From positions 1-32,873 of the forward strand of contig JAYZEG010000080.1 in assembly GCA_036337435.1 (NCBI GenBank): a stretch of DNA of 32,873 nt. The letters run 5' to 3'. The notes under the pieces were generated by a model. The model had not been told where the DNA came from and made no database searches. It saw only the letters and a program-made list of their open reading frames with translations. This document shows positions 2,370 to 22,898 of the stretch, piece after piece. The position numbers and the translations under genes were made by a program. The stretch's first letter is position 1; each line of letters begins with the position of its first letter. This DNA is from Myxococcota bacterium (lineage in GTDB: Bacteria > Myxococcota_A > Bradymonadia > UBA7976 > UBA1532).

Positions 2370-2750
2370 ATGATGACAAAACAACGAATCGAGCCACTTC
2401 TTCGACTTTCCAAAAACTTCCACGCTCATGTGTATTTCGATGACATTCAGTTTGAACAAGCCTTGGCGTGTTATTCGGCTATCCAATCATCTTTTGCTGA
2501 GCTGACGCTGGGTCGAATACACGAAAAATTGGTCGGACCACATTTAAAAAGACAGTTCCAAATTGCCATAGACCGGAAGACTGTGACTGAGTTCGTTATT
2601 TGGCTCGACAAAAACAGAGGGCGATTGTCTGTCCTGGTGCATCCATTAACCTCAAACGATTTGGAAGACCATACACATCATGCGCTCTGGCTTGGGACGC
2701 CAATCCCACTAAACCTCGATGTATTGGAGGCGTCTAATCAATCTGATTAA
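2370..2750 (+). CDS. DOPA 4,5-dioxygenase family protein
   Basis: Family motifs FHAHVYF, VGPH, SVLVHPLT, DHTHHALWLG. ATG at 2370 has AGGGAG upstream and is preferred over the TTG at 2316. Confidence 0.88.
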   Translation: MMTKQRIEPLLRLSKNFHAHVYFDDIQFEQALACYSAIQSSFAELTLGRIHEKLVGPHLKRQFQIAIDRKTVTEFVIWLDKNRGRLSVLVHPLTSNDLEDHTHHALWLGTPIPLNLDVLEASNQSD

Positions 2751-3351
2751 AGTCGGAATAACGTGACAAACGACGGCGCGTCGGATCCAAGAAGTACTGG
2801 GTGTCGAGGCCGCTGATGAGGCCGACTGAAAGCCCAATTAACATGCCTGATGTAAGGGAGGTCACGAAAGTCTTTGAAATGGTGCTTGGGTCTGTCGACC
2901 CCTGAGACAGAAAAAAGCCTGCGACACTGCCGACGAATGCACCTGTCAACAGACCAGCGACAGGTCTTGCTGTACCCGCTATCGCCAGTACCTGAACGTC
3001 GCTGAAATTGATTTCTGTCCGCTGGCCATGGCCCTCCAGCACCAAGGTGTCTGCGTCTTCAGCTAACTCCACGAAGGACCCCTCAGCCGTCTTTTGCCCG
3101 ACTGTGAGCAGCCTGAGGTAAGTGCCCGGCGCGACGATGCTTTCCGTCACCCAGCCAAAACGGCTCGGTCTGCGTGCAGATGGAGAAAATGGCCTCGAAA
3201 AAAAGGCGATTGAACGGGCCTCCGAGGCACTCATCTGGATATACAACTCTTTTTTAACAGGATGCGCTTTGGTTTGGTTCGGTGACGCAGACCCGTCGCC
3301 TATCCAGTTTGGTGCGACGCACAACAGGCCGACTAGCGCGAGCCCCCGCAT
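2734..3351 (-). CDS. Hypothetical exported/membrane protein with C-terminal glycine-zipper-like hydrophobic hairpin
   Basis: Likely start MRGLALVGLLCVA (signal-like). Two Gly-rich hydrophobic segments, GLLTGAFVGSVAG and TSGMLIGLSVGLISG. The ORF track extends the start to 3420. Confidence 0.55.
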   Translation of the reverse strand: MRGLALVGLLCVAPNWIGDGSASPNQTKAHPVKKELYIQMSASEARSIAFFSRPFSPSARRPSRFGWVTESIVAPGTYLRLLTVGQKTAEGSFVELAEDADTLVLEGHGQRTEINFSDVQVLAIAGTARPVAGLLTGAFVGSVAGFFLSQGSTDPSTISKTFVTSLTSGMLIGLSVGLISGLDTQYFLDPTRRRLSRYSDFNQID

Positions 3352-3599
3352 GCTCTCTCTCGATTGGCGAATTCTGACTGGCAGCCCTTCAGACCGGTCG
3401 GACCGGAACGCTTCATACATAAGCGGAACGAGGTGTCCTTACTTTTGCAATCGGCACTTTTTGCGGACCCTCGGACTGAATTCTTATATTTGCTGCCCCG
3501 ATTGGCCGTACAGCCGCCGGCCCATACGGCAATGGCCGACCCGAGGAACATCAGGAGGGCGAGGGGGACGACGGTCTTCTGTTTGGTTCGATGCTTCAT
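3333..3599 (-). CDS. Small basic Cys-rich lipoprotein-like protein
   Basis: GGAG RBS upstream. Basic N-terminus, hydrophobic core and lipobox-like AGG-C30, then CX9C and CX10C pairs. Confidence 0.6.
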   Translation of the reverse strand: MKHRTKQKTVVPLALLMFLGSAIAVWAGGCTANRGSKYKNSVRGSAKSADCKSKDTSFRLCMKRSGPTGLKGCQSEFANRERACGGSR

Positions 3600-3675
3600 T
3601 TAACTCCGAAAAAGTCACGGACGCTTAGTTGAACGGGACCAGATTTCTGAGACAAAAGCTAATTTTTGTCGTTTT

Positions 3676-4101
3676 TTATCGGCTTTCTCCGCCGGACCGC
3701 CCCTTGGACTCGAGAATAACAGTAGCCGTAGCATACTCATCTTCATGGCTTAAACTTACCCAAATGGGTCCGATATTGAGTTGGGCGGCAATTTTGCGAG
3801 CTTGACCATGGAGGCGAATGGATGGGCGACCCCACGCGTCGCTTACAATTTCAATATCGATCAGTGGAATTTGACCAATGAGTGGTGGGGTTCCATATCG
3901 ACTCGCGCCCAACGCCTTGAGAAATGCTTCTTTCGCAGCAAAACGGGTTGCGAGCCGCTCGGCGGTTGGCACTGTCCCATCATTGCAGTAGGTCAGTTCC
4001 TCGCGTGTAAAAGTCCCTTCGATGACGCTCGTACTTGCGTCATCGAGTGCACGACGCCAAAAGTCCGTTTTGGCGAGATCTGTTCCCAAGCCAATGATCA
4101 C
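3676..4101 (-). CDS. acpS: Holo-[acyl-carrier-protein] synthase (AcpS-type 4'-phosphopantetheinyl transferase)
   Basis: IIGLGTDL, FTREEL, LATRFAAKEAFLKALG, GRP and VSLSHE motifs. The GTG start overlaps the FAS stop (GTGA, 4098-4101). Confidence 0.95.
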   Translation of the reverse strand: MIIGLGTDLAKTDFWRRALDDASTSVIEGTFTREELTYCNDGTVPTAERLATRFAAKEAFLKALGASRYGTPPLIGQIPLIDIEIVSDAWGRPSIRLHGQARKIAAQLNIGPIWVSLSHEDEYATATVILESKGRSGGESR

Positions 4102-7100
4102 AATACGATACGACCATTGGGATCGAGAAGCAGTTCGTATTCTTGGTCCGCCGACATAGTTTTATCGAGGCCACCACCAAAGAACTTCTGTTCACCAAGC
4201 ATGACACTGTATTGTGCCTTCAGCTGATAGTTCCAACGCGCATCTCGCCTTTGAGCATATTGCTCAAGCTCCGCTTCGCTCAGGCCCTCCAGCAAGACGT
4301 TGGCGTTTGCAATACAAACAGCAGCCCCCACATGGCCAAAGCCTAAGCTCGTCAGAATACCCGCTTTGAGGGAACCTGGGCCGTAGTTCAACGCTTCGTC
4401 TGAAAACAAGAGCGGTGCGCGGTCGTCTAATCGTCGGTCCGGCTCATCGAGATTATGCATTGGAGGGATAACCCCCTCATTTAACGACTGGCAAAGACCG
4501 ATTAGTTGCCAAGCGGCCGCACCACCCTTCGCATGACCTGTGATGGCTTTTTGTCCGATGACGGGCAATGGGTTACCCGGACTTCTACCTAATGCCTTAG
4601 CGAGGTTCGAGTGCAATTTCGTTTCATTGAGGTCATTGGCATCCGTACTTGTCCCATGCATACTGATGACGCCGATATCGTCGGCGCCCAGCCCAAGCTT
4701 GTCTAGAGCTCGTCCCAGGGGCGAACTCAGACCACCAGCACCGATTGCACTGATACCGGGTCCAGGTGCTGGCACCGATTTTTGAAGGCCGTCGGCTGCT
4801 GACCAGGCACCAGCGACCAACCCATAAATCGGAAGACCGAGCTCGATGGCTGTATCGGCACGACATAAAAGGATTGTTCCCCCGCCTTGAGACTCTACAA
4901 ATCCACCTCGACGGGCATCGCATGGGCGACTGCTCTGATCTGGGTCAAACCCTCGTCGTTCGCGCTCAGCTGCGCTGATGGTTGCTTGCATCTCAGCAAA
5001 CCCGCGCGCACCTTCCTTACTGAAGTCATCGAAGGCACCAGCCACAACGAAATCTGCTTTGTTGGCCATCAGCAGGTCGTTTGCAATTTCCACGGATACC
5101 GCAGCGGTTGCACAGGCGGACACCGGATTAATCATCGGGCCATAGCCCCCATAAATATACATGCCCGGATAGGCAGCACCCACATTGATCAAAGTCTCTT
5201 GCAGGACATCGCTTTGCTTGTTTTGGTCGAGCACCGAATCCGCATACAGCCGCCGCAATGCACGCATCCCACCAATTCCACTGCCCTGTGTGCAGGCGAT
5301 CCGACTCGGATGAATCTCTGCCCATAGTTCCCTCGGGTCGATTCCAGCGGTTCTAAATGCCTCGGCTGTTGCCAGCAAATTGTAGATGGCGACTGGGTCT
5401 ATTTGTTCTAGTTGCTGAGCGTCGAAACCGAGTCGCGTTGGCTCGAACCCCTCTGGGAGCTGACCTGCAATGTCTCGGTCGATTGGGTCAATCCGGGGTA
5501 CACGAACTCGCGCGCCCGCCTTTCGAACGACTTTGAACCCATCATCTGCAACCACGACTCGAGTGTGTGCCGGATCTTGGCGTTTAAAACTCTCGGCGAT
5601 GTCCGCATCCGGGACATGGAAGACCAAGTCCTCACTGAGGAGCACTTCGCTGTATGCTTCGACCATAGTCGGGTCAAAAACCGCGTTCTCACGGATGCCA
5701 ATTGCACTGTTTAACTCATAAGTCTGCACCAGTGAATTGACATCGACAGCGTCTCCAGTCTCGATGTCCAGCCATTCGCCGTTCTCAAATTTAATATGAC
5801 CGCACAACCAAGCCAGCTCGATAGCATCGGACGGCGTCAGGTGTTGGGTCTTCTCAATGGACCAGCGCGCACGCGCGTTTCCAAAGGGACCGATTTCTCC
5901 AAACCCGACGATGGCGATGGTGCCTGCCGGGTCGATAGCCTTACCAGTTGCAGCCTTTGGTAGTGCTGGGAAGTCGAAGAGATTCAGCGGCAATCCTGGC
6001 GAAGCCGCTGGCGCCTCGACCGCGCCGAGCTGGCTCTGGGCACTTTGCAGCGCATCATTGATCAAATCACGTAAGCCTGTTGCTTTCCCGAAACCGCCGG
6101 TTAAGTCAGCAACCACCGGAGCCTCAGCACTGGTTGCTCGGCCGTTTTCGTCACAGTAACCCAAGATGAGGTCAGCCATTTCGGTTGGGCTGAAGGTTTC
6201 GATACCAAGCTCAGTTTCGATGCGTTTGTAGACTCTATCGAGCCCATGCATGAGTCCTGTCCCCCGTACCCAGCCAATGCGAGCACCACATAGGGTTGTA
6301 TACTTGCCCCAGCGATCGAATTCAGCGGCCCATCGACGGAGTAAAGTCTCAAGCCCAATTTTAGATTCAGCATAGAGCCCATCCCGGCCCATTTGGCCGT
6401 GATTAGGTGAGAGGGGCAAAACGACATGGACAGGTTGCACGTCAGCACCGCGCTTACTGATTTCAACAGCGAGCTTACCGATTAAGCGCTCGACGCCGAT
6501 CAGATTCACTTTCAATGTGTCCGCAATGGACTCATCGAGCGTCGTTGGGTCACCCTCGGCGGGGACGGCACCAAATGGAAAGCAGAGCGTTGGTAGCCAC
6601 GGTGTTTTCAGTTGTATTCGAGCGGCACCGCGTGTTTCAAAACTCGACGACAACATCCACTCGCAGAGCCGATCGATATCATCGAAGTCACCCTGATTAA
6701 AGGGAACGATATGCAACTCTGAGCCTCTGGCACCATGTCTTCGATACAGGGTCTTGAATCGTTTCAAGCGGTCACGGGTGGGCCTCGATGTCGTCACGAC
6801 GACGCGGGCTCCACCCTCAAGGAGTCGTTTGATGATGCCCTCGGCGATAGAGTCTGGCCCCGCACCTGTGACCAATGCTGTTTGGTCTGCCCAGGCTAAA
6901 GGTTCAGCCATTCCGTTCATAATGGCGGTTCGCGTTTGTCTCAGCTCTTTTGCAAATTTCGATTGTTTAGACGTCGTTGTCAGAAAGTAATCCAGCATGT
7001 CGATACTGGCCTTGTCACCGGAACGAGACAACCTCTCATTGAGCTGATTACAGGTCTTACCGGCGCGTGCCGTCTGCACCAATGCCAGCGTATCGACCCG

Positions 7101-10100
7101 CTGCCATTGCTCAATGGCTGTATATGCGACATGAGCCGCGGCATCGAAACGGCCCGACTTAGATGCTTGTTTGGCGACGGGGTCTGCGGGCGCCTCCGCG
7201 AGTGCTTTATCAATGATGAGCGGATCAATATTGGCGGAACGGAGTGCCGTTCGTGCAACATCCAGCCAGCTTTGGCGGATTTTCGTTTCCGTCGCTTTGA
7301 GCGCACTGGCGTCGACTGCCACCGTAGGCCCTGCCGCTGAGGTACTGCGTTCAAGTGACACTCCGGACCGTCTTGCGTACGCTTGTGCAGCAGCTTTCAA
7401 TGGGTCTGCATCCGACATGTACTGGCCGGATTCACTCGCAAGGGTACTGAGGACCGCATTCCCGCGACCGGCTTCGAGCCCGTAGCGTTCATTTAATTGA
7501 CTCAAAGCCGCTTTTTTACCCTGTCCGATCGTACCCAGTGCTTGAGTTTGTGCAGCCTTCAAAATGGCGCCCGGATGTCGGTAGCGTGCGCCACCAGCGC
7601 GGGAGATCGCATCGGTTAACTCGACGATGGGCAGCTCATGTGCGCCGTCGACCGGCCCAACACCAAACTCTTTACCCAGGTCGAGTAGTACTTGGTTTCG
7701 TCTCGCTGAATTTCCACCGAGCAAACCATCTATGGTGTCGGTTCTTCCGATTGAATCGATGCCTTGCCCTGCCCGCAGCGCAAGCAGTGCTTTCAGTGCA
7801 TCAGCGATGTCCCATGGTTCGTCATCTATGGGTTCTGTCGATGCGACCGATACCGTGTTTGTGGTCTGAACGTGAGTGACGTCCGCTTGCGTTTCAGGTG
7901 CTCGCGTCTCGACGGCGACCGGATCTTGTTCATCAGCAGGCTCAGGCCCGATGCCCACGACATCAATGAAGTCACGTGTGCCGTGCAAAACCGGCGGGAC
8001 GACATCCCTCGCGCGGGTGCTGCTTCGAAACATATTAGATAAAACAGGTGCGGCCTCTGGGCCAACCTCAATGAGTTGCTCCACTTCGTCCGCGAGGTAC
8101 TCTTGTGTCTCGATCCATCTGACGGGTGATGCAAATTGCCATGCCAGAAGCTCGATGAGCAGTCGACGTGCATGTTTCTCCGGTGCTTGTCGAAATTCAA
8201 TCAGATCCGTAAAGCCCGTTGCGGCGATCATGTCGTCGACAAAATCAGCGGAAAGCTCAAACGGGCGAGCGACAAGGTTGGGGACGTATCGACCCACGAG
8301 ACGGTTGATGTCAACATCTTGGGGGATACATTTTTCGAGAACGTCTCGGAAAGCGGGAACGCCATCCACCAGCAGTGGGCTATGAAAGGGGACATCAATG
8401 CCTGGAATTTGAATCCATGCACTTCCATCAGGTGCGCGTTCGGCGAGTCGTTCGGCCAGGATCTTGATGGCCCCCAAGTGCCCAGCGACCGCATATTGGC
8501 GGTTTAAGACATTGTGGTTGACGACGTATAAAGGCAAGCCCGACTCATCTGCGACAGCATTGACAAGTTCCTGTGCGGTGACACCATCGATACCTGCGCG
8601 ATTGGGTCTAATCACACCCATCGCGTAGTCAGAACGGCCGTTCTCATCGCGCGCGACGTAGCGTTGCATGGTCAAGCCACGATGATAGACCACATCGACT
8701 AATGCGTCTAAGGGCAAAACATCGGTTACAGCCGACAATGCCGAATATTCTCCAACGGAGTGGCCACAGAACCAAGCATCGTCAGGACACGCTCCATTTT
8801 CTCTCAGTTCAGCGACGCCGGCGCATGACAAAACCGTGAGGGCAACCTGGGTAAACTGGGTTACATGAAGCACACCATCTGGATGGCGAATAATGTCACC
8901 GCCGACATCGAGGGTTTTTGGATTATTGCGGACGATCTCCAGTAGCGAGAACCCATAGGTCTCTTGTGTATGCGCATCCGCTCGATCCCAAATTGCTTTC
9001 GCGTCTCTAGAGCGGGCGTAAGTGTCCATGCCCATGGCACGTCGTTGACTCCCTTGGCCCGGAAAAATGAGGGCGGTTTTTCGTCTTGCAACTTGGGCTT
9101 TGAGTCGAACTGCGAGAACTCCATCGCTAAACACCTGCATATCGATGAGGTCATCACCGTTCTTACGTCCGACCAGTTCAGCTTCGAACCTGAGCGACGC
9201 GCCCGGTCTCACTGGCGCGATGAACTGAGCGTAAGAATGATTGAGTTTCCGGTCCGACCCACAGAGCAGTGCGCATGCCGTGGCGGCTGTCCACTGGCCA
9301 TGAACAATGGGCTCAGGGAGGCCGGCCAAAACGGCCAGAGCCGGATCGCGATGTATCGGATTCAAATCACCCGAGATATGAGCGAATGCTCGCAGGTCAG
9401 ACGGTGCCTGAATCTCCGTCGTAGACACATGACGGTTCCTGAGCAGCACAATCCCTTCAGGGCCCTGGCTCTCTGCTGTCTCTGAACTTTGGAAAACAGT
9501 TGGAATGGTCCCGTCAGCCCGTCTGATCAAGAAGACTTGATTGAGACGAGCAACAAGGGTGTCCGATGCCGATATGTCGACGGCAATCTCGACGCGTCGG
9601 CCGGCCGCCTCATCTCTCACCCTCGGCGTATGTGTAATCACGTCATAGGGCCCATCCGCTGCACTGATTTGTTTAATCTCACTGCTTAGGTGGAGTAGCG
9701 ATAAGGGATCGAGTCCGAGCTCTGGATTCAGGAGAACCTGCATAATGCCAGGAAGAGCTGTTGCGAAGAAAATCTGTTCTGGTGTCGCGGGCCCTTCGTC
9801 ATTTGTGACCCGGCGATAGGCGGCAATTCTGTCTGCATCAATGGCCACTTCATCGGGCATGACCTTGCTATAAAAGTCTCGGACGCGCGCGGCCACATCA
9901 TCAGATGCCCGCAGCGGATAAGGATGGAAGGGCTTGACGTCGAAATCTAACGTCAATGTCTCCGAGCCCCCGAGCGGGCGTTGATGCTTGATGCTGAGTT
10001 GAATGCTCTTGCCTTGAACTGACAATGACACCTGGTCTCTCGCCACCTCAAGCAAACGCGGAATTGGATTAGGCCGTTCTTCCCGCCCATACAAACAAAC

Positions 10101-13073
10101 ATCTGCGTTTTGAGCCACCGCAAGCAAATCGACTTCAGCGACTTGCCCCATCGACGGTACGCTTTCCTTGGTTTTGTCCAAGAATCCTGCGAGTAAGTCA
10201 GCGACCGGAACATTACTTTGAGTGATCCCCCCGACAGCCTCCGGGCCTGGAATAATCAGAACTTGATCGGGCTCATACCGGTCATCATGGGCCTGCCAAA
10301 GGGAATCGGAGCAGTACCATCGCCGCACGTTTGCATCGATGACGGGCACGAAGGGAACTGGTTTACCCGGCGTTGCACAGATGCGATGGATAAAGAATTG
10401 CACATCTTCGGGTATCACTCGGGCATCGGTGAGTCGAGGGCAGGCCTCGAGCAACTGATTGAGCTGAGACTTGGGTGAATTCAATTCGCGGTCTTCAGGA
10501 AGCGCTCCGTCATAGCCACATCGCATCAATGCGCGACGAAGCATTTTTCCGTACCGTGCGCGATGGGTAATATCTAACCAGATTCCATCTTCGTAGTCCC
10601 CATCACGACCCAACGCCATAACCTCGATCAACCTTGACAGAGCCTCGCCGTAGGTCATGTGATCGATATCCCCGAAATAGGGTTTTGCTGTCTTGTTCAG
10701 CGCATCGATAATGGCCGAACGTTTTGATTGAATCTGGCGTTCATCGCCGACGACCGTATCCAATAGAGCAGCCGTTCGTGCCGCATGATTGTCGATGTAG
10801 TGAATGTCAGCACCGAGCCCACTTAAGCCAGAGCGGATGCCGGCCGTTGCAGTTCCGCGACCAATGACTGCCGGTGTACCGTTGGTTTCGACAAGGCAGT
10901 CTTTCACCTTTGGTGCGGTACACGCTTCTTTGGCTGCCATGAGTGCTGTACCCAAGAAAACAGCGTCTACGGGCATATCCGCTCGCTCGTATCCCCGGCT
11001 CCAAGTGCCCGTGAGCAAGTCTCGAACGCGTTCACCGGTGCCAATACCACCCCCGACGGTCAACAAGACATTTGCGCGTTGCCGAATCCGCGCATACCAA
11101 TTGAGCAACAGTTCATCGAGAGAGTCGAAACTATGATGCCCACCGGCCTTACCGCCCTCAACTTGCAGTATAAATTGTCCATCATAGGCGTCGGCAATTT
11201 GCAGAGCTTGCCGAATCTGATCATCGTTGCCCACTTTGAGTGAATTGAGGGTCATGCCAAGTTCGGTGAAGCTATCGAGTAAGGCTACAGCTTCATCAAC
11301 AGGTGGGATGCCCGCTGTAATGGTGACTCCAAGGATGGGATGACCCTCACTTCGAAGTTTTTGAACCAGACGATCTTTGCCGATCTGCAATCCCCAGAGA
11401 TAAGGATCAAGATACAAGGTATTAACCACATAGCCCTCTCCCGGTATCAGTTGTTCTAAAAGTTCGTCAGCGCGCTTTCTAAAAATACGCTCGGTGACTT
11501 GGCCACCGCCGGCCAACTCCGACATATAGCCCGAATTGGCGGCCGCTGCGACAATGGGTGCTTCCACTGTTGTTGGGGTCATTCCGGGTAGCCAAATTGG
11601 CTGTCGATTTGTCCGCCGAGTGAACTCATTTTCTAGAACCAATTCTCCATCAGGGCGCTCCACGACCACCGGTGCGAATATGGTCCAGGGTTGAGGCGGC
11701 TTGAGGTCTTGGTCGTTTCGAGTCATCAGCAGGCGTTCGCCGCTCTCTGTGGCACCCGCGATGACTTGTACGCCTTCTCCACGCAAACAGAGAGCCGAGA
11801 CCGCAGAGACGCCTGCGCCAGGACCGGCGTCGATCACCTGGGTTGGTGAGAACCCCATCACGCCCTTCATGGTTGCCGGCCATTGGACCGAATTGATGGA
11901 CTGCGATACGCACAGGTCTTCACCTGCCCAAATCGCCCCCGTTTCAAATCGAAGCATGGGAACCTTCAAGCGTTCCGGAGTTGGTTCAAACCCCAGCTGT
12001 TTCGCTTTGGCTTGCATGAGTGGCAGAGCCTTAGCCATCGCTGGTGAATGATACGGTGCACTGACAGACAGCCATTCGACGCCCAGCGAGCGCGGACGAG
12101 CAGACAAACCCTTATCGAATGCGCTAAATTCGCTCTTTGACCGAGTTTCTAGTCGCCTCACAGCCTGTTCGAGGGCATCCGGTTGTCCACTGATCACAAA
12201 GCGCCTCGGTGAGTTCGCTAACCCGATGACTGCATCAAGACCCGACAGAGCTTGTTCAATCTCAACTCGAGATTGTCCCGTTACAGCAACCATGGGAGTT
12301 TCCGTACCGGCGGGTCGGCCGTAAGACATTTGCATGTAGATGCCTTGCCAGACCAGGTAGCGCGCGATTTGGTCAGCTCGTCTTTCTAAGGTTTGAAGGG
12401 TATGTCCTTCAGCCGCAACCAACGCTGGCAGAATGCCCTGACTGTGACCTGTCGTAGCAACAGCCAAATCGGCGATCCGCTCAATATGGAATCCCTGTCG
12501 TTCGAGAGCGACTAACTGGGCAATTTGAGTGACAAAGATCAGCGGTTGAGACAAGACAGCATCAGCCAATCTGTCCGAGGGTGGCCGAGTTGCTGGATCT
12601 TCGATCCAACTGATGAGTTCAAATCCAAACGGATGCAATCCCTCTAAACCCGCACGAGTGTCGACTTCATCTTTGAGCGCGGTCGCACATGAGTTAATGA
12701 GCCGCTTTGCGTTTGGTATTTCGTACAATCGTTCGAGGTCATCAAAATAACTTTGGGCTTGTCCGGCAAAGGTCAGAACAACTCTTGCGTCTCCGTTCCG
12801 AGCCCATTTCAAAAGCAGCGAGTTGGTCGTCGGTGTGAGTTGTGCTCGAATGGCGTAAATGGTGCGTTGATCAACAGTTCCAGCCAAAGACTCAACCAAT
12901 GCATCTGTGATGTCAGTGCCCGTCAGACGACTATCTACTCGATTCCAAGCGTCCATGACAGCTGAGGCGTCTTTTGCATGGATGTTGAGTTTTGCTTTGC
13001 CAAAACGGGACGGCCCCTCAATCCAAGTTTTCTCGCTATTCGCGTTCATTGTCTTGTCCATAAGCTTGTTCAT
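4098..13073 (-). CDS. fas: Single-chain type I fatty acid synthase (CMN/fungal-type): AT-ER-DH-MPT-ACP-KR-KS
   Basis: AT GHSQG (~12440). FMN-ER PGMTPTTV, ELAGGGQ, EGGKAGGHHS. DH SGDLNPIH and HGQW. MPT FPGQGSQ, GHSVGEY, VPFHS. ACP GGNSARRNQ (Ser codon 7707-7709). KR LVTGAG, SPNHG, YAESK. KS SACATAA (Cys 5112-5114), HGTST, GHAKGG, TSLGFG. Start probably ATG 13073 (alternatives 13061, 13049). Confidence 0.95.
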   Translation of the reverse strand: MNKLMDKTMNANSEKTWIEGPSRFGKAKLNIHAKDASAVMDAWNRVDSRLTGTDITDALVESLAGTVDQRTIYAIRAQLTPTTNSLLLKWARNGDARVVLTFAGQAQSYFDDLERLYEIPNAKRLINSCATALKDEVDTRAGLEGLHPFGFELISWIEDPATRPPSDRLADAVLSQPLIFVTQIAQLVALERQGFHIERIADLAVATTGHSQGILPALVAAEGHTLQTLERRADQIARYLVWQGIYMQMSYGRPAGTETPMVAVTGQSRVEIEQALSGLDAVIGLANSPRRFVISGQPDALEQAVRRLETRSKSEFSAFDKGLSARPRSLGVEWLSVSAPYHSPAMAKALPLMQAKAKQLGFEPTPERLKVPMLRFETGAIWAGEDLCVSQSINSVQWPATMKGVMGFSPTQVIDAGPGAGVSAVSALCLRGEGVQVIAGATESGERLLMTRNDQDLKPPQPWTIFAPVVVERPDGELVLENEFTRRTNRQPIWLPGMTPTTVEAPIVAAAANSGYMSELAGGGQVTERIFRKRADELLEQLIPGEGYVVNTLYLDPYLWGLQIGKDRLVQKLRSEGHPILGVTITAGIPPVDEAVALLDSFTELGMTLNSLKVGNDDQIRQALQIADAYDGQFILQVEGGKAGGHHSFDSLDELLLNWYARIRQRANVLLTVGGGIGTGERVRDLLTGTWSRGYERADMPVDAVFLGTALMAAKEACTAPKVKDCLVETNGTPAVIGRGTATAGIRSGLSGLGADIHYIDNHAARTAALLDTVVGDERQIQSKRSAIIDALNKTAKPYFGDIDHMTYGEALSRLIEVMALGRDGDYEDGIWLDITHRARYGKMLRRALMRCGYDGALPEDRELNSPKSQLNQLLEACPRLTDARVIPEDVQFFIHRICATPGKPVPFVPVIDANVRRWYCSDSLWQAHDDRYEPDQVLIIPGPEAVGGITQSNVPVADLLAGFLDKTKESVPSMGQVAEVDLLAVAQNADVCLYGREERPNPIPRLLEVARDQVSLSVQGKSIQLSIKHQRPLGGSETLTLDFDVKPFHPYPLRASDDVAARVRDFYSKVMPDEVAIDADRIAAYRRVTNDEGPATPEQIFFATALPGIMQVLLNPELGLDPLSLLHLSSEIKQISAADGPYDVITHTPRVRDEAAGRRVEIAVDISASDTLVARLNQVFLIRRADGTIPTVFQSSETAESQGPEGIVLLRNRHVSTTEIQAPSDLRAFAHISGDLNPIHRDPALAVLAGLPEPIVHGQWTAATACALLCGSDRKLNHSYAQFIAPVRPGASLRFEAELVGRKNGDDLIDMQVFSDGVLAVRLKAQVARRKTALIFPGQGSQRRAMGMDTYARSRDAKAIWDRADAHTQETYGFSLLEIVRNNPKTLDVGGDIIRHPDGVLHVTQFTQVALTVLSCAGVAELRENGACPDDAWFCGHSVGEYSALSAVTDVLPLDALVDVVYHRGLTMQRYVARDENGRSDYAMGVIRPNRAGIDGVTAQELVNAVADESGLPLYVVNHNVLNRQYAVAGHLGAIKILAERLAERAPDGSAWIQIPGIDVPFHSPLLVDGVPAFRDVLEKCIPQDVDINRLVGRYVPNLVARPFELSADFVDDMIAATGFTDLIEFRQAPEKHARRLLIELLAWQFASPVRWIETQEYLADEVEQLIEVGPEAAPVLSNMFRSSTRARDVVPPVLHGTRDFIDVVGIGPEPADEQDPVAVETRAPETQADVTHVQTTNTVSVASTEPIDDEPWDIADALKALLALRAGQGIDSIGRTDTIDGLLGGNSARRNQVLLDLGKEFGVGPVDGAHELPIVELTDAISRAGGARYRHPGAILKAAQTQALGTIGQGKKAALSQLNERYGLEAGRGNAVLSTLASESGQYMSDADPLKAAAQAYARRSGVSLERSTSAAGPTVAVDASALKATETKIRQSWLDVARTALRSANIDPLIIDKALAEAPADPVAKQASKSGRFDAAAHVAYTAIEQWQRVDTLALVQTARAGKTCNQLNERLSRSGDKASIDMLDYFLTTTSKQSKFAKELRQTRTAIMNGMAEPLAWADQTALVTGAGPDSIAEGIIKRLLEGGARVVVTTSRPTRDRLKRFKTLYRRHGARGSELHIVPFNQGDFDDIDRLCEWMLSSSFETRGAARIQLKTPWLPTLCFPFGAVPAEGDPTTLDESIADTLKVNLIGVERLIGKLAVEISKRGADVQPVHVVLPLSPNHGQMGRDGLYAESKIGLETLLRRWAAEFDRWGKYTTLCGARIGWVRGTGLMHGLDRVYKRIETELGIETFSPTEMADLILGYCDENGRATSAEAPVVADLTGGFGKATGLRDLINDALQSAQSQLGAVEAPAASPGLPLNLFDFPALPKAATGKAIDPAGTIAIVGFGEIGPFGNARARWSIEKTQHLTPSDAIELAWLCGHIKFENGEWLDIETGDAVDVNSLVQTYELNSAIGIRENAVFDPTMVEAYSEVLLSEDLVFHVPDADIAESFKRQDPAHTRVVVADDGFKVVRKAGARVRVPRIDPIDRDIAGQLPEGFEPTRLGFDAQQLEQIDPVAIYNLLATAEAFRTAGIDPRELWAEIHPSRIACTQGSGIGGMRALRRLYADSVLDQNKQSDVLQETLINVGAAYPGMYIYGGYGPMINPVSACATAAVSVEIANDLLMANKADFVVAGAFDDFSKEGARGFAEMQATISAAERERRGFDPDQSSRPCDARRGGFVESQGGGTILLCRADTAIELGLPIYGLVAGAWSAADGLQKSVPAPGPGISAIGAGGLSSPLGRALDKLGLGADDIGVISMHGTSTDANDLNETKLHSNLAKALGRSPGNPLPVIGQKAITGHAKGGAAAWQLIGLCQSLNEGVIPPMHNLDEPDRRLDDRAPLLFSDEALNYGPGSLKAGILTSLGFGHVGAAVCIANANVLLEGLSEAELEQYAQRRDARWNYQLKAQYSVMLGEQKFFGGGLDKTMSADQEYELLLDPNGRIVL

Positions 13074-13416
13074 TGTTTTACCGATTTTCCCCAAAATCAC
13101 GATTCGCCTTGCCAATAGCAAAAAGCGTGCACAAAAAAAGTGCCATCGGGCCGGGGTGACCGGCATTTTATCGCCAAAGACCCGTGGCGAAACGCTTTTG
13201 CACTGCGTAGGCTGCTTCGCAGTCCAACAGCTGATACACCCACATGTCCAGTGAACCCTAACCGCGTGCGCGTCAGGGAACAAGCGTCTCTGTTAATTTA
13301 TCATCCGGGTTCCCGAGCCCTGAAAACCCGCACAACTGGTCCCGACGGGACTTTGCAAAACGAGACACTTAAGGTACCGATATTGGGATAACGGAATGAT
13401 TGCAAGATGGAGTTCG

Positions 13417-14196
13417 ATGGCAACCTATATCATCGGCGATGTACAGGGCTGCTTTGCCACCTTTCAGCGATTGCTGGCTTTTGTGCAATTTCAGCCTCAA
13501 CGCGACCGGGTTTATTTGCTCGGAGATTTGGTCAATCGCGGTCCGGATTCACTCTCCATGCTCCGGTGGGCTAAGTCTCATGATGCCGTCTGCGTTCTCG
13601 GTAACCACGACTTGTACTGTCTCCATACGTACTCAGGCGGTGCGAGGCGCGTTGGCGATACGTTGTCAGACGTATTGGCTGCACCTGATGTAGATGACCT
13701 TATGGATTGGCTACGGCGACGTCCTTTCGCTTGGTTCGACGAAACCTGCGTCCTGGTTCACGCGGGATTTCAACCGGATTGGAACGTCGAACAGGCCATG
13801 GCGATTGCCACCGCCGCCACGCGACGGCTTTCCGGGCCTGATTGGAAAGCTGTCTGTCTCACGATGTCGAACACTGATTCGGCGGATGACGGAGTATCGA
13901 CTCTCACCCAAATTCGCATGTGTAACCCATCTGGGGAGCCCGATTACCGATATAAAGGCGCACCTGAAGCAGCACCAAAACACCTATCCCCGTGGTTTGA
14001 AGGCTCGTCCATAGGCACGCCGACTCGTCCCGTTTTTTTTGGGCATTGGGCGGCGTTGGGGCATCGTAACTTAGGCAGCGTCATCTCGATGGACACCGGA
14101 TGTGTTTGGGGCCGGACATTATCGGCCTATCGATTGGACGATGGTCGTGTCTTCGCTGTGCCTGCTGTCCCATCGGATATCTACAGCGACCAGTGA
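13417..14196 (+). CDS. apaH: Symmetrical bis(5'-nucleosyl)-tetraphosphatase
   Basis: MATYIIGDVQGC, GDLVNRGPDS, LGNHD, VHAG, FFGHWAALG, DTGCVWG. GGAG RBS before ATG 13417. Confidence 0.95.
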   Translation: MATYIIGDVQGCFATFQRLLAFVQFQPQRDRVYLLGDLVNRGPDSLSMLRWAKSHDAVCVLGNHDLYCLHTYSGGARRVGDTLSDVLAAPDVDDLMDWLRRRPFAWFDETCVLVHAGFQPDWNVEQAMAIATAATRRLSGPDWKAVCLTMSNTDSADDGVSTLTQIRMCNPSGEPDYRYKGAPEAAPKHLSPWFEGSSIGTPTRPVFFGHWAALGHRNLGSVISMDTGCVWGRTLSAYRLDDGRVFAVPAVPSDIYSDQ

Positions 14197-14271
14197 ATGA
14201 CAGGTGCATGAGAGCAACAGCGCATGGTATGGTATAGCGGAGCGACTTAGTCGGGGTAAGCAGGTAAAAAA

Positions 14272-17200
14272 ATGGGAAGCATGTTCCGTAGATTCATAGT
14301 GCTCATTGTGATGTGTCTGCCGAGCTTCCAAGCACACGGTCAAGATTTGGTGCGCGGCTGCATCGAGACCAATGGGCAGGGTCAGGGACTAGACCTTTTT
14401 GTCGATGGTCTTGGTGTCCTACACATGAGCCATGCGACCCGTATTCAAGGCAGCTTGCGGCTCACGTCAATCGACGTAGATGGCACTGTGACCAATCAGT
14501 CTATCGCCAATCGCATTCATCGATTCCCGACCACTGACACGTTAGGCACGGGGCTCTTCATCGACGGGACGACAGCCATCGTGTGTTACCACAACCAGCT
14601 CGCCGATACGCTTAATGTAGCGACTCGGACCAATGGACAATGGCGCATCGATATTGTTGCTCGGAATGTGGCTGGTAATGGGTGTGCAGTAACGCGGAGC
14701 GGCAATGAGACATTGGTGCTCTATCACGGCAATAATCAGCTGATGGCTGCAGCCAAAATTGGTAATGGCCAATGGACGACACGCGTTGTGGATGCGGGTG
14801 ATGGCAATGTCGGAGAGTTGCCCAATTTGGCTCGAAGTGGAGCAGGGCAGTTGGCCGTCGCGTATCGTGATACTGCAAATGGTCGACTCAGGGTTGCCTT
14901 TAGAAATGGGGGACAATGGATTGTCGAGATACCTGACCTACCTGTCGGCAATGCTGGTCATAATCCGCGGCTTGTTGCTGTCGCGAACGAATTCAAAATT
15001 TTTCATGGACAAATCGTCGGTCAGCTCGACGTTGAGACCGACGGCAGTCTTTTGATGACCACGCGGACCAATGAGGGTGACTATGATTCCATCATTTTCC
15101 CCGACTTTGCTGTCGGTGGCACCATCGGTGCAGCGGCGAGTGACCGTGGCGTTTTCGCGTCGACTCGACATTTGAGTCGCAGTGCACTGTTTGGTGATTC
15201 CGACGGTTTGTTGGTCTTTTCTGGTGAGCCCCTCACGTCAGATGCATTCGAGCAGTATGGTCCGGCCCAAGGCCGACATACTTATTTGTTTGTCCGCGTT
15301 GCCATGGACCCTTTTGGCTTGCCTGTCGTCGCTTTTGTGGATTCGTTTCTTGGTGGTTTTGGAAGCGCCGATGGCTCTCCGATTTGTTACTGGCGTCCTC
15401 GCGACACCGATGAAGACCGGATCCCCGACGAAATCGAGCAAGAGTTGGGCACCGATCCCAATGTGCGCGATACGGATGGCGACGGTCGAAGCGATGGTCA
15501 AGAAGTGTTGATCGATGGAACAAACCCCCTCGCGGATGATGTGTGCCGTCCGGTGCCAGAGGTCTGCAACGGTGATGACGACGATTGTGACGGTCGGACC
15601 GATGAGCAGCTCGTCACCGATTGTTACGAAGGGCCGGAAGGAACCGACGGTGTCGGGGCTTGTATCGGTGGCAGTCGGCGCTGCGTCGATGGTGCTTGGC
15701 TAGGCTGTGAAGGACAAATTACCCCATCTGGTGAAGCGTGCGACTTGGTTGACCAAGATTGTGATGGTCGCGTCGATGAATCCGTCGCGGGCACAGGCGG
15801 GGACTGTGACACGGGATTGGCAGGGATCTGCGGCGACGGTGTGCTCGCTTGCTTTGCAGGTGCGATTCGTTGCAGCGCGCTGACGGCGGCTCAACCGGAC
15901 GTATGCAATGGTCTTGACGACGATTGTGATAATGCCGTCGACGAAGGTGATATCAGCTGCGGCGTCGGCGTTTGCGTACGTCGCGTAAATGCATGCTCAG
16001 GCGGGCTCGACAACGTATGCTTACCACTCGCCCCAACCGGAGATGATTTAACCTGTGATGGTGCGGATAATGATTGTGATGGCCAAGTTGACGAAGGTGC
16101 GCCGCCGCAGCGGGTCAGTTGTGGCCGAGGCGCGTGTCTGCGGCAGGTCGAATTGCCTTGTCAGAATGGACAGCGGCTGGGTGAGTGCGTGCCCGGACAA
16201 CCGAGTGATGACACCGTGTGTGATGGCATTGATAACGATTGTGACGGTCGGATTGATGAGGCCTTTGTATCAACGGTAATTGAGTGTGGTGTGGGTGCCT
16301 GTCGAACGGTTGGCAGCACCGGTTGCATTGCCGGGGTCGTTGTCGAGCAGTGTCTGCCATTAGACCCGGCAGTTGATGATGCGCAATGTGATGGGGTCGA
16401 TGCTGATTGCGATGGGCGTTTGGACGAAGACTATGCGGAGAACGCCTCAGAATGCGGCGAGGGTGCATGCGCCCAAATTGGTGTTGTCGCCTGCGTCGCC
16501 GGCATTGTCGTTGATCAGTGTAGTCCGTTGCCGGGAACGCCTGATACCGACTGCGATGGGCTGGACAATGATTGTGATGGGAGAATCGATGAGGCGTATG
16601 CTGGCCGGCCCGTCCAGTGCGGCATCGGCCTATGTCAAGCTGAGGGACTCACGGTTTGCTCGGACGGTGAAGAAGAAATCCGCTGCCAAACCTTCGAGCC
16701 GGAACCAGACGTCAATTGTGATGGACTCGATGATGATTGCGACGGTCGGGCCGATGAGTCCTTTACCGATATTGGCATTCGATGCGGTGTTGGTGCGTGT
16801 ACACAGGCCGGTTTAAGGCAATGCGTTAATGGAAATCTAGTCGATTCGTGTGACCCGACATTGCCCGTGACACCCGACGCCGAGTGTGACGGGATCGATA
16901 ACGACTGTGACGGTCGGACAGACGAGAGCTTTGCTGGTCAACTGATTTCTTGTGGGCAAGGCTTGTGTTCGGCAGAAGCAGCTGAAGTCTGCATCGATGG
17001 AGAGACGATAGACCGATGCATACCGGGTGATCCCGAAGCCGAGGATTGGGTCTGTGACGGACGCGATGAAGACTGTGATGGTCGTCTAGATGAGGATTAT
17101 GAAATTGTGCCGACGACGTGTGGCGTTGGTGCATGTCAGGCAGAGGGACAAATCATTTGTCTCGATGGCGACCCAAATGTTTTGTGTACGCCCGGCCAAC

Positions 17201-22290: not shown

Positions 22291-22898
22291 TGGATGATCT
22301 GCTCATCATTTGTCCTGATCGGCGCTGGAAGGCGGTGCTCGAGGCATTTTTGGATCGCACGAGACACCTCGGCATACGAGAGGTGACGGTCAGTATCCAT
22401 GCCATGAGCACGGGCGGTTCGAGGGCTTTGCTCGAGTCGGGTGTGGAGTTGGCAAACGCCCAGGCGGGTCGTTTCAATCACTGTTTGCTGATGTTGGATG
22501 CTGATCAAGCCGGCGATGAGCGAGATGGAGCCGCCATCCAGGTTGACCTATCCAGTCGGCTCAGCACGGTATGGGAGAATAGAGCGGCAGCGGTTGTGTC
22601 GAGCCCGTCTCTTGAGTCATGGCTGCTCGAAGCGCACCGTGTTTTTGCCCGTATCCCTGGCTTGAGAGGTGTGGATGTAAGACGTTGGCTGAGCGATTCC
22701 GGTCATTGGCCCATGAATGCTGCACAGCCCGACCAGGCGAGACATGCCGTGAAGGCCTTATTCGAAAAGCACCGCGTGCCACTGTCCGCGGCAAACTATC
22801 GAATTGTTGCGGCCGAATATCCGCTGCGATTCGATCGTATTGAATCGCCGAGCATGAGACGCTTTATCTACCAGCTTCGGGATTGGTTTCTAGCCTAG
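22290..22898 (+). CDS. MAD4-like / DUF4276-like TOPRIM-fold partner protein
   Basis: TAATG overlap with the ATPase. DLLIICPD..LDRTRHLGIR, LLMLDAD, PSLESWLL, WP..QP and SPSMRRF..LRDWF pattern recalled for MAD4-type partners of AAA_21 ATPases. Confidence 0.7.
   Translation: MDDLLIICPDRRWKAVLEAFLDRTRHLGIREVTVSIHAMSTGGSRALLESGVELANAQAGRFNHCLLMLDADQAGDERDGAAIQVDLSSRLSTVWENRAAAVVSSPSLESWLLEAHRVFARIPGLRGVDVRRWLSDSGHWPMNAAQPDQARHAVKALFEKHRVPLSAANYRIVAAEYPLRFDRIESPSMRRFIYQLRDWFLA

Follow-up and report, generated by a model that had tools for sequence, protein, structure and literature searches.

A 2022 review describes bacterial fatty acid synthases of type I (FAS-I) as restricted to Corynebacteriales (PMC9260719). 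A single-chain FAS-I gene followed by acpS in a Bradymonadia (Myxococcota) genome raises the questions of whether this gene is complete, which role it may play and whether it belongs to its host. The analysed DNA, referred to as the window, is a whole contig of 32.9 kb originating from a marine MAG of 95 contigs (87% complete, 1.5% contamination). In a literature search covering journals outside subscription, no paper describing FAS-I in Myxococcota or Bradymonadia was found.

Domain architecture of FAS-I and its coupling to acpS

The longest open reading frame of fas starts at a TTG codon (4098..13283, minus strand) and comprises 3,061 aa, whereas the ATG at 13073 yields 2,991 aa. This ATG is also kept in the same-genus locus, as seen in the alignment of the window genome (G000) with MAG G001, and homology to relatives begins at residues 14-15. 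Because of the conserved ATG and the onset of homology, the range 3676-13073 and the length of ~2990 aa proposed by an earlier sequence-only reading are correct. The following features were assigned:

4098..13073, minus strand: fas, 2,991-aa single-chain microbial type I FAS (Pfam, PDB homology, motifs, conserved ATG)
12132..12776, minus strand: AT (acetyl/starter transferase), residues 100-314; PF16073 SAT/AT, 64 bits; GHSQG at 209
10191..11174, minus strand: ER region with the Fas1/AflB-like helical hallmark, residues 634-961; PF08354, 291.3 bits (cut-off 25); GKAGGHHS at 641
9132..9425, minus strand: DH of the MaoC/hydratase-2 type, residues 1217-1314; PF01575, 67 bits; SGDLNPIH at 1234
8463..9068, minus strand: MPT (malonyl/palmitoyl transferase), residues 1336-1537; PF00698, 161.7 bits; GHSVGE at 1437
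7353..7826, minus strand: ACP domain, residues 1750-1907; PF18325 Fas_alpha_ACP, 43.7 bits; GGNSARRN at 1786
6174..6890, minus strand: KR region with approximate, inferred limits, residues ~2062-2300; GAGPDSIA at 2070, YAESK at 2234
4449..5474, minus strand: KS, residues 2534-2875; PF00109 and PF02801; TIGR03150, 146.6 bits; ACATA (Cys) at 2653, HGTST at 2806, GHAKG at 2846
3676..4101, minus strand: acpS, 141-aa holo-ACP synthase (group I PPTase) with a GTG start
13117..13135, minus strand: conserved block GTGCACG-N4-TTGCT, 44-62 nt upstream of the fas ATG, a possible regulatory site

Seven activities were located on one polypeptide in the order AT-ER-DH-MPT-ACP-KR-KS by Pfam and, in the case of KR, by motifs and alignment. 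The ER hallmark PF08354 was recovered at the same place by a genome-wide profile search, and TIGR00128 also matches the MPT stretch (8304-9080). No Pfam match was obtained for the KR of this protein; the region was placed by means of its motifs, a weak SDR match at residues 2062-2098 and an alignment with solved FAS-I that covers KR-KS. Motifs of presumed catalytic residues were detected in every domain by a motif search, and the serine of the GGNSARRN motif at 1786 is, by comparison with fungal FAS, the presumed phosphopantetheine site. Since the patterns were spelled from the window FAS, lower counts in other clades represent variant spelling and not loss, and were not used. Furthermore, the Pfam search of the protein revealed neither a thioesterase nor a PPT domain. 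The domain order, the intact motifs and the lack of these two domains had already been described in the sequence-only reading and were upheld by Pfam, motifs and alignment to solved FAS.

Full-length alignments to solved mycobacterial FAS-I reached 1,657-1,679 bits (M. tuberculosis PDB 6GJC, 1,679; 4V8V, 1,663), and the score to 6GJC excludes chance resemblance. For fungal FAS, about 615-628 bits (alpha) and about 555-575 bits (beta) were obtained. Judged by its sequence, the window gene encodes a complete FAS-I of the microbial (fungal/CMN) type in which none of the seven catalytic domains is missing. CMN FAS-I of M. tuberculosis and M. smegmatis (PDB 6GJC, 4V8L, 4V8V) likewise consists of one ~3,000-aa chain of the same AT-ER-DH-MPT-ACP-KR-KS order and has no fused PPT. 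Pfa-type PUFA synthases and type I PKS also combine KS, AT, DH and ACP in multidomain proteins, and weak local matches to PfaA/PKS models were observed. Assignment to these classes was rejected: the window FAS scored 88.2 bits with TIGR02813 (cut-off 1,010.1) and 108.4 bits with NF045894 (cut-off 1,740), its domain order differs and its ER is of a non-PKS type.

Fungal FAS is divided between a beta and an alpha chain and possesses a C-terminal PPT domain and extra scaffolding. With S. cerevisiae Fas1/Fas2 (PDB 2UV8) the window FAS has in common which catalytic domains are present and how they are arranged, a PF08354-bearing FMN-type ER and a Fas_alpha_ACP-type carrier, whereas its homology scores (alpha, 615 bits; beta, 555 bits) are lower than to mycobacterial FAS-I and only 141 residues remain after its last KS motif.

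The acpS product exceeded the cut-offs of PF01648 (49.3 bits; cut-off 25), TIGR00556 (86.5; 45.35) and TIGR00516 (63.2; 59.8), and its best equivalog model, NF000831, scored 105.9 bits, under the cut-off of 124. The TGA of fas (4100-4098) overlaps the acpS GTG (4101-4099), reading GTGA; this overlap, noted in the sequence-only reading, can be read directly from the DNA. As in the CMN fas-acpS operon, acpS directly adjoins fas on its downstream side, the stop codon of fas sharing bases with the start codon of acpS. In all 11 related genomes counted as having downstream DNA, acpS directly follows fas; the count leaves out G006 and G024, in which downstream DNA is missing, as well as G012 and G013. 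Moreover, AcpS identities between relatives track those of FAS. The gene is predicted to encode an AcpS-type PPTase dedicated to fas and translationally coupled to it. It belongs to a lineage distinct from the C66-type PPTase, which the FAS-I-negative relative G004 also has, and represents an additional PPTase for which G004 yielded no counterpart. This extra, fas-linked PPTase is new in this analysis.

Upstream of fas, G000 and G001 share the conserved block at 13117..13135, within an alignment that is elsewhere 65% identical. It resembles a sigma-54 site with two mismatches, but sites of this kind are no more frequent in the window than chance predicts: TGGCAC-N5-TTGCW with up to two mismatches was found 15 times (18.8 expected), which lends no support to sigma-54 promoters. 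Scanning of positions 2600-14400 gave uninformative counts, namely three sigma-70 promoter-like sites where 6.8 were expected, and 16 terminator-like sites where 12.4 were expected. No TetR gene is located beside fas in the window.

FAS II genes, carboxylase and predicted role of FAS-I

Diderm markers of the window genome include Pal, a TolB-like protein (match below its curated cut-off) and LpxC. The window contig itself encodes FadL, a MopE-repeat protein, ApaH, Ung, TyrS and GrpE. The diderm host proposed in the sequence-only reading is supported by FadL, Pal, the TolB-like protein and LpxC, and the ApaH, Ung, TyrS and GrpE genes it had named are present. Two of its indications found no support, namely the sigma-54 promoters and the MYXO-CTERM signal; for the latter, the C-terminal 100 residues of the 2,078-aa protein gave no match (E <= 1) to any NCBIfam model.

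Regarding FAS II, a plsX-acpP-fabF cluster was identified in the window genome, with a gap of only 163 bp between plsX and acpP. FabG scored 297.1 bits (cut-off 297.75), a FabI-like reductase and FabZ are kept, both below curated cut-offs, and FabK gave no match in this genome. Further lipid genes encode LpxC, PlsY and a PlsB-like acyltransferase. Among the genes fabF, fabH, fabI and acpP, raised in the sequence-only reading, acpP, fabF and a FabI-like gene are present elsewhere in the genome, whereas FabH was not found. At E <= 1e-20, FabH was absent from G000, G002 and G003, the best match in G001 amounted to 88 bits, and the best FabH-like match of G000 is a type III PKS. Stand-alone FabD was not detected in G000, where FabD-model matches occur only inside FAS itself; in G003, a bin contaminated to 7%, a partial FabD-like ORF situated at the end of a contig scored 144 bits across 132 residues. 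The absence of FabH and FabD rests on four MAGs of 100, 89, 87 and 81% completeness (G000, 87%). A genus apparently without FabH and stand-alone FabD, yet with AcpP, FabF, FabG, FabZ, a FabI-like reductase, LpxC and PlsX/PlsY, is new in this analysis. Its FAS II differs in this respect from that of mycobacteria, which have both FabH and FabD.

FabH and FabD are kept in FAS-I-positive relatives such as G011, G016, G017, G006 and G020. FAS-I as a general replacement of FAS II was rejected, since most FAS-I-positive relatives outside the genus keep both genes. FabH (E <= 1e-20) was also without a match in the FAS-I-negative class members G028, G030, G033-G037, G039 and G040, as was FabD (E <= 1e-30) in G033, G036, G037, G039 and G040. 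Cultured Bradymonadales are described as fatty-acid scavengers with many fadL copies, and cultured Bradymonadia as incomplete in fatty-acid synthesis and dependent on prey lipids (PMC7460792). Because several FAS-I-negative members gave no match to these genes either and Bradymonadales are reported to scavenge, loss of FabH and FabD may reflect scavenging instead of replacement by FAS-I.

The window genome also encodes a full-length, eukaryote-like single-chain ACC on contig C37, unlinked to fas; this partner carboxylase is a further difference from the CMN system. In G011, G017, G016, G018 and G014 the single-chain ACC gene immediately follows acpS. Linkage of ACC to acpS in relatives and its separation in the window genus are new in this analysis. 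The single-chain ACC was rejected as an exclusive FAS-I partner: it was detected in 16 of 16 FAS-I-positive and also in 11 of 25 FAS-I-negative genomes, these counts (41 genomes, stricter first pass) being lower bounds.

Based on genome interpretation, the locus is probably a native, intact fas-acpS module of uncultured marine Bradymonadia, in which FAS-I would be the only de novo source of fatty acids in the genus, because the genes with which FAS II would be initiated, FabH and stand-alone FabD, appear to be missing. Following the known chemistry of the family, AcpS would phosphopantetheinylate the internal ACP domain. AT would load acetyl-CoA and MPT malonyl-CoA, the latter supplied by the single-chain ACC, and KS, KR, DH and the FMN-type ER would carry out iterative C2 elongation. 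Release of long-chain acyl-CoA by MPT is predicted, acyl-CoA being the inferred product by analogy, and the PlsB-like acyltransferase could pass it into phospholipids. The remaining FAS II might cover acyl-ACP needs for lipid A and PlsX/PlsY.

Alternatively, FAS-I could have an auxiliary or specialised function (storage lipids, unusually long chains, lipid or polyketide starters), with prey, or a route of FAS II initiation that escaped recognition, supplying the bulk of the membrane fatty acids. Many FAS-I-positive relatives do keep a complete FAS II with FabH and FabD, and the fatty-acid scavenging and numerous fadL copies reported for Bradymonadales (PMC7460792) have a parallel in the FadL of the window contig. 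Moreover, the family (f1) carries three different FAS-I lineages in the KR-KS trees, a patchy, accessory-like pattern, and PlsX/PlsY and LpxC require acyl-ACP; no path leading to AcpP from the acyl-CoA of FAS-I or from malonyl-CoA was recognised. However, neither a further malonyl transferase nor a KAS for initiation was detected in the genus, and fas has no tailoring or secondary-metabolite genes linked to it, being accompanied by acpS alone and, in relatives, additionally by ACC. Throughout the genus the gene also keeps its motifs intact, with FAS identities of 74-92%. An auxiliary function is considered unlikely compared with FAS-I as the only de novo source.

Origin of the locus and distribution of FAS-I in Myxococcota

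FAS-I (E <= 1e-100) was detected in 16 of 41 related genomes including the window genome, all 16 being members of the same family, which contributed 25 genomes to the set. Orthologues of the window FAS occur across the genus and in many genera of the family, with acpS downstream in every case counted, which agrees with the long-resident lineage suggested in the sequence-only reading. The hallmark domain PF08354 was found in 45 of 401 sampled Myxococcota species (~1/9) and, among 14 control genomes, in Corynebacterium glutamicum only. The earlier statement that Myxococcota normally use FAS II consequently needs softening. A FAS-I native to a Gram-negative lineage, whose hallmark domain is present in about one ninth of the sampled Myxococcota species, also differs from the Corynebacteriales-only view expressed in PMC9260719.

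In KR-KS trees, the short-form clade containing the window FAS comprises 15 rows (support 100) and is joined by three sister rows (support 98). It lies outside the Actinomycetota clade of 16 rows (6 of them named; support 100). Long-form FAS-I of 3,200-3,490 aa (loci L017-L019), 40-45% identical to the window FAS, form two further clades, one of which groups with Actinomycetota. These long-form Myxococcota operons belong to the same FAS-I family and even the same GTDB family and have acpS directly downstream, but include ACC, which the window genus has on another contig.

Recent horizontal transfer from Actinobacteria would account for the architecture and fas-acpS linkage shared with Corynebacteriales and for the mycobacterial best matches among solved structures. 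Against it, identity to named Actinobacteria is only 38-39%, the window and Actinomycetota clades are separate with support of 100 each, the latter grouping with another lineage, the contig composition is typical of the bin, and orthologues are spread through the genus and through several genera of the family. Such a transfer is highly improbable, and the window FAS, encoded in a diderm, LpxC-bearing Myxococcota host, is not an actinobacterial import; the expectation that it would not nest in Actinobacteria was thus borne out.

The locus was furthermore described as compositionally native, which was substantiated by composition, flank synteny and bridging contigs. In a comparison of tetranucleotide distance with 35 similarly sized contigs, the window contig falls on the 60th percentile, its GC is typical of the bin, and the fas segment scores 0.0133, where random chunks of 9.4 kb have a median of 0.0123. 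Both flanks of fas-acpS are syntenic in the same-genus MAGs G001 and G002. Contigs from runs X1 and X2 of two studies bridge the acpS/fas junction, and independent metagenome contigs also bridge the acpS 3' boundary. None of the listed metagenome contigs (300-1,300 nt, gaps in cover carrying no meaning) bridges the fas 5' boundary at 13073, where continuity rests on G001 synteny. A mis-binned or chimeric contig, with the fas segment from another organism of the metagenome, is conceivable for one whole contig of a 95-contig, incomplete and slightly contaminated MAG, but can hardly be correct given the gene order repeated on both sides in two same-genus MAGs, the spanning contigs, the bin-typical tetranucleotide profile and GC, and the FadL and MopE-repeat protein genes on the same contig.

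Actinobacterial FAS-I branch among Myxococcota-labelled lineages in the KR-KS tree, and CMN FAS-I may for this reason derive from a Myxococcota pool. Taken jointly, a wider interpretation is offered tentatively, as possible rather than probable. FAS-I would be the sole de novo synthase of a diderm, lipid-A-making genus that lost FabH and FabD, and the retained AcpP-FabF-FabG-FabZ-FabI set would be fed from FAS-I. This would constitute an independently evolved, mycobacterium-like two-stage system, with MPT possibly charging AcpP in trans. FAS-I diversity would be greater in Myxococcota than in Actinobacteria, from which pool the CMN enzymes might stem, and FAS-I together with ACC would form a eukaryote-like lipogenesis module.

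An uncultured sister family with FAS-I alters the picture of the class as prey-lipid dependent that is drawn in PMC7460792. The occurrence of a FabH- and FabD-less FAS II beside FAS-I leads to a testable question, namely how a diderm obtains acyl-ACP for lipid A, and the FAS-I tree bears on the origin of actinobacterial and fungal FAS-I. Finally, structural studies and engineering could profit from the short forms (~2,850-3,000 aa) as compact FAS-I scaffolds.

The fas-acpS operon and its products

The window, contig C80 of a marine Bradymonadia MAG (4.38 Mb, 95 contigs, completeness 87.3%, contamination 1.5%; Bradymonadia represent a class within Myxococcota), carries an intact gene for a single-chain type I fatty acid synthase (FAS-I) linked to the PPTase gene acpS. 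In the ORF listing, the fas frame spans 4098..13283 (-) at its longest extent; translated from the ATG at 13073, it encodes a protein of 2,991 aa. This ATG and the purine-rich stretch preceding it are both kept in the same-genus locus, and similarity to relatives begins at residues 14-15. The following features were assigned, domains by Pfam:

4098..13073, minus strand: fas, single-chain FAS-I
3676..4101, minus strand: acpS, 141 aa
FAS residues 100-314: SAT/AT domain
FAS residues 634-961: Fas1/AflB-like helical domain of the ER region (291 bits)
FAS residues 1217-1314: MaoC dehydratase domain
FAS residues 1336-1537: acyltransferase (MPT) domain
FAS residues 1750-1907: Fas_alpha_ACP domain
FAS residues 2534-2875: KS domain

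For the KR, no Pfam match was obtained in the domain search of the full protein; a Gly-rich motif at 2070 and a YxxSK motif at 2234 were observed. The motif scan also recovered motifs ascribed to all other active sites. Among solved structures, mycobacterial FAS-I come closest (6GJC, 1,679 bits; 4V8V, 1,663; 4V8L, 1,657), followed by the fungal FAS subunits (alpha 628 bits, beta 575 bits). Translation, Pfam, motifs and structure homology thus confirm the ORF of about 2990 aa and the AT-ER-DH-MPT-ACP-KR-KS order described in the sequence-only reading. Its claim that thioesterase and PPT domains are lacking was likewise borne out: Pfam detected neither, and the protein ends just 141 residues after its last KS motif.

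AcpS matched PF01648 (49.3 bits, cut-off 25), TIGR00556 (86.5, cut-off 45.35) and TIGR00516 (63.2, cut-off 59.8), and its best equivalog model, NF000831, scored 105.9 bits, below the cut-off of 124. The fas TGA and the acpS GTG share bases, reading GTGA, in agreement with the overlap noted earlier. The proposed search for conserved synteny among Bradymonadia relatives placed acpS directly after fas in all 11 related genomes with downstream DNA, a count leaving out G006 and G024 (no downstream DNA) as well as G012 and G013 (not fetched). AcpS identities across relatives (82, 54, 52, 50 and 44-40%) track those of FAS. Two ACPS-model genes are encoded in the window's genome: in addition to the gene next to fas, C66 bears a divergent copy. 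Orthologues of the C66 type occur in G001, G011, G016 and also the FAS-I-negative G004. Genes of the fas-linked type were found nowhere except beside fas, and the two types share just 26% identity over 65 residues (E = 0.035). Based on these results, the fas-linked AcpS is an additional PPTase that travels with fas.

Consensus promoter scans around fas gave matches at chance level, and the sigma54 promoters previously suggested for the window likewise fared no better than chance. A block upstream of fas, 13117-13135 (-), is kept in the same-genus MAG G001. The same acpS sequence is located at the end of G001 contig C92 and at G001:C62:69-461 (contig start); these contigs probably adjoin each other. 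Moreover, a 228-aa ORF without Pfam match (2734-3420, -) lies 255 nt downstream of acpS; in the same genus, an equivalent occupies this position in G002 (54%), with weak conservation in G003 (33%).

Host assignment and integrity of the contig

Genes for GrpE, TyrS, a DOPA-dioxygenase-family protein, Ung, an ECF sigma factor and a 2,078-aa MopE-repeat protein were confirmed on C80, as were two neighbours named in the sequence-only reading, ApaH (NF001204, 249.9 bits, cut-off 176) and a FadL/TodX outer-membrane transporter. Genes for Pal, a TolB-like protein, LpxC and PssA are located outside C80; the host is therefore a diderm making lipid A. These genes, together with FadL/TodX, support the Gram-negative host proposed earlier.

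The tetranucleotide distance of C80 to the genome mean ranks 53 of 89 among contigs of at least 5 kb and lies at the 60th percentile among 35 contigs of 20-50 kb. For the fas-acpS segment it amounts to 0.0133, within the 5-95% range of random 9.4-kb chunks (0.0100-0.0180), so that the locus is compositionally native, as had been presumed. Gene order is FAS (92%, C-terminal 609 aa)-AcpS (82%)-orf228 (54%)-DOPA dioxygenase (69%)-TyrS (91%)-GrpE (82%) in G002. In G001, orf202 (61%)-AAA ATPase (72%)-MopE protein (58%)-ApaH (47%) is arranged divergently from FAS (74%)-AcpS (54%). Furthermore, window DNA is present in marine and seawater metagenome runs from 13 studies, and contigs of two runs bridge the acpS/fas junction (3513-4172 and 3735-4544), the former also crossing the acpS 3' end. 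Given composition, synteny and independent assemblies, mis-binning is very unlikely, as is the chimerism at the fas boundaries considered in the sequence-only reading.

The MopE-repeat protein (14272-20508, +) contains MopE-type putative metal-binding repeats and a TSP3 repeat; its gene shows a strongly positive GC skew throughout, and the protein is 58% identical in G001. The earlier mention of a MYXO-CTERM-like protein found no support here, as no MYXO-CTERM model matched within its last 100 residues. At 20605-22898 (+), a 561-aa AAA ATPase (AAA_21) is followed by a 202-aa ORF starting at the ATPase end. Among NCBIfam models, the ATPase comes closest to the MAD3 methylation-associated defence ATPase, at 203 bits and thus short of the cut-off of 420; the ORF has no family match, and G001 keeps both (72% and 61%); they may represent a defence-type pair. 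A 482-aa fusion of nucleotidyltransferase and CDP-alcohol phosphatidyltransferase (27083-28531, -) best matched the model of the Thermococcales bifunctional inositol-1-phosphate cytidylyltransferase/DIPP synthase, at 246.5 bits and so short of the cut-off of 580, and could be an enzyme for a di-myo-inositol-phosphate-type solute or an inositol lipid in a marine bacterium.

Distribution and phylogeny of FAS-I

FAS-I was detected at E <= 1e-100 in 16 of 41 genomes (the window's and 40 relatives), all within its GTDB family, which contributes 25 genomes to the set. The remaining 25 showed FabF-level matches only, apart from one ambiguous 1.1-kb AT-like fragment in G010. In an even phylum-wide sample, the hallmark PF08354 was present in 45 of 401 Myxococcota species genomes (32/339 high-quality genomes; 35/254 genera); the negative score of G002 there stems solely from contig ends interrupting its fas. 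Among 14 control genomes, only Corynebacterium glutamicum was positive. In a large protein database, 7,999 candidates were scored, of which 3,100 were homologues at E <= 1e-20; those nearest to the window's FAS show 49-61% identity, some labelled Myxococcota MAG. Named homologues originate from MAGs of Myxococcales, Polyangiales, Bradymonadia and Deltaproteobacteria, from 'Ca. Uabimicrobium' (34%), and from the actinobacterial Mycobacterium sp. (39% identity, 52% query coverage) and Mumia (38-39% identity, 97% coverage). Automatic annotation calls them 'DUF1729 domain-containing protein' or 'fatty acid synthase, bacteria type'.

Unrooted trees, with organism names on a minority of rows, were built on the KR-KS region (945 aa; representative library of 444 clusters at E <= 1e-30) using FastTree (260 rows) and an IQ-TREE LG+C20 PMSF quick tree (70 rows, SH-aLRT support only). 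In the latter, with FastTree agreeing, the window falls with G001, G011 and G017 into a clade of short forms (about 2,850-3,110 aa; 15 rows, support 100), sister (98) to three proteins, one from a Myxococcota MAG. In both trees it lies outside the Actinomycetota clade (16 rows, support 100), in which six of 16 rows are named (Mumia twice, Tomitella, and MAGs of Micrococcales, Microthrixaceae and Solirubrobacteraceae). Nesting within an actinobacterial genus at high identity, raised earlier as a counter-explanation, is thus not found. The Actinomycetota clade joins (100) a long-form lineage including G014, G015, G016 and G018 of the window's family (loci L017-L019 and L021), and a third lineage (G006, G020; loci L020, L022) is positioned deeper, near planctomycete and Leptospirales MAG proteins. 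Three distinct lineages (about 2,950-3,000, 3,260-3,300 and 3,460-3,490 aa) within one GTDB family imply either transfers inside Myxococcota or an ancient paralogy there.

Both this enzyme family and its fas-acpS operon have been known from Corynebacteriales and fungi, and the window's FAS-I is a separate lineage of the family in a different phylum. The relevant passage of a 2022 review (PMC9260719) gives the bacterial range of FAS-I as Corynebacteriales; our literature search found no paper on FAS-I in Myxococcota. New for the window's genus are a FAS II lacking FabH and FabD, a dedicated second PPTase and an ACC separated from the operon.

Fatty-acid and lipid genes in the genus

The sequence-only reading had asked whether fabF, fabH, fabI and acpP are present elsewhere. 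Canonical AcpP (110 bits, cut-off 70.45), FabF (619.5, cut-off 493.75) and a FabI-like reductase (best 12 matches all FabI models, each below its own cut-off) were found, but not fabH. The cluster reads yceD-like-plsX-acpP-fabF, and since only 163 bp separate plsX and acpP, fabH, fabD and fabG are absent from the cluster itself and not lost in an assembly gap. FabG is encoded outside it (TIGR01830, 297.1 bits, cut-off 297.75; NF009466, 264, cut-off 222). FabZ (NF000582, 104.9, cut-off 113) and PlsY (142.8, cut-off 137.2) were also identified, as was a PlsB-like acyltransferase that scored 372 bits without reaching its cut-off. The FabD model had no match in the genome outside the AT and MPT domains of FAS, and no stand-alone FabD was found in G000 (the window's genome), G001 or G002; the best match in G001 (100% complete) lies inside a 2,236-aa PKS-like ORF, and a partial FabD-like ORF sits at the end of a G003 contig. 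FabH was not detected at E <= 1e-20 in G000, G002 and G003; the best G001 match reached 88 bits, and that of G000 turned out to be a DpgA-like type III PKS encoded in a FAAL-ACP cluster.

Speaking against a simple replacement of FAS II by FAS-I are the co-occurrence of FAS-I with FabH and FabD in G011, G016, G017, G006, G020 and others, and several FAS-I-negative class members without FabH, FabD or both. Mu et al. 2020 (PMC7460792) report for all cultured Bradymonadales that FAS II is incomplete and that fadL occurs in many copies, and propose prey scavenging. De novo fatty-acid synthesis in the window's genus probably proceeds through FAS-I alone.

In L017-L019, as well as G011 and G017, acpS is immediately followed by the gene of a single-chain ACC of about 1,820 aa (biotin carboxylase, BCCP, ACC_central, carboxyltransferase). 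G000 and G001 carry a full-length orthologue (42-43% identity, residues ~9-1816) on a separate contig from fas; none was found in G004. As, across the 41 genomes, it occurs in 16/16 FAS-I-positive and at least 11/25 FAS-I-negative ones, a role as exclusive FAS-I partner is ruled out, and it is predicted to be a malonyl-CoA source across the class.

Following the family's established chemistry, AcpS would activate the ACP domain, AT would prime with acetyl-CoA and MPT would load malonyl-CoA from the single-chain ACC. KS, KR, DH and ER would carry out chain elongation, and MPT would release acyl-CoA, which may be usable by the PlsB-like enzyme. The remaining FAS II elongation enzymes probably provide acyl-ACP for LpxA/LpxD-type reactions and PlsX/PlsY.

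A second FAS-like cluster (FabZ-like, two KS genes, FabD-like AT, SDR) recurs in many family genomes, e.g., G011:C3:9079-15898, G016:C1:1048846-1054730 and G009:C24:5251-9100, and the best 'FabD' matches of the family often fall there, not beside acpP. Furthermore, locus L036 (G000:C11:82000-97000) encodes, at about 4100-11000, a DpgA-like type III PKS (150 bits) together with a fatty acyl-AMP ligase and a small ACP-like ORF. The cluster further comprises a UbiG-like methyltransferase, an isoprenylcysteine-methyltransferase-like protein and a geranylgeranyl-reductase-family flavoprotein, and resembles a lipid pathway of the alkylresorcinol or alkylpyrone type.
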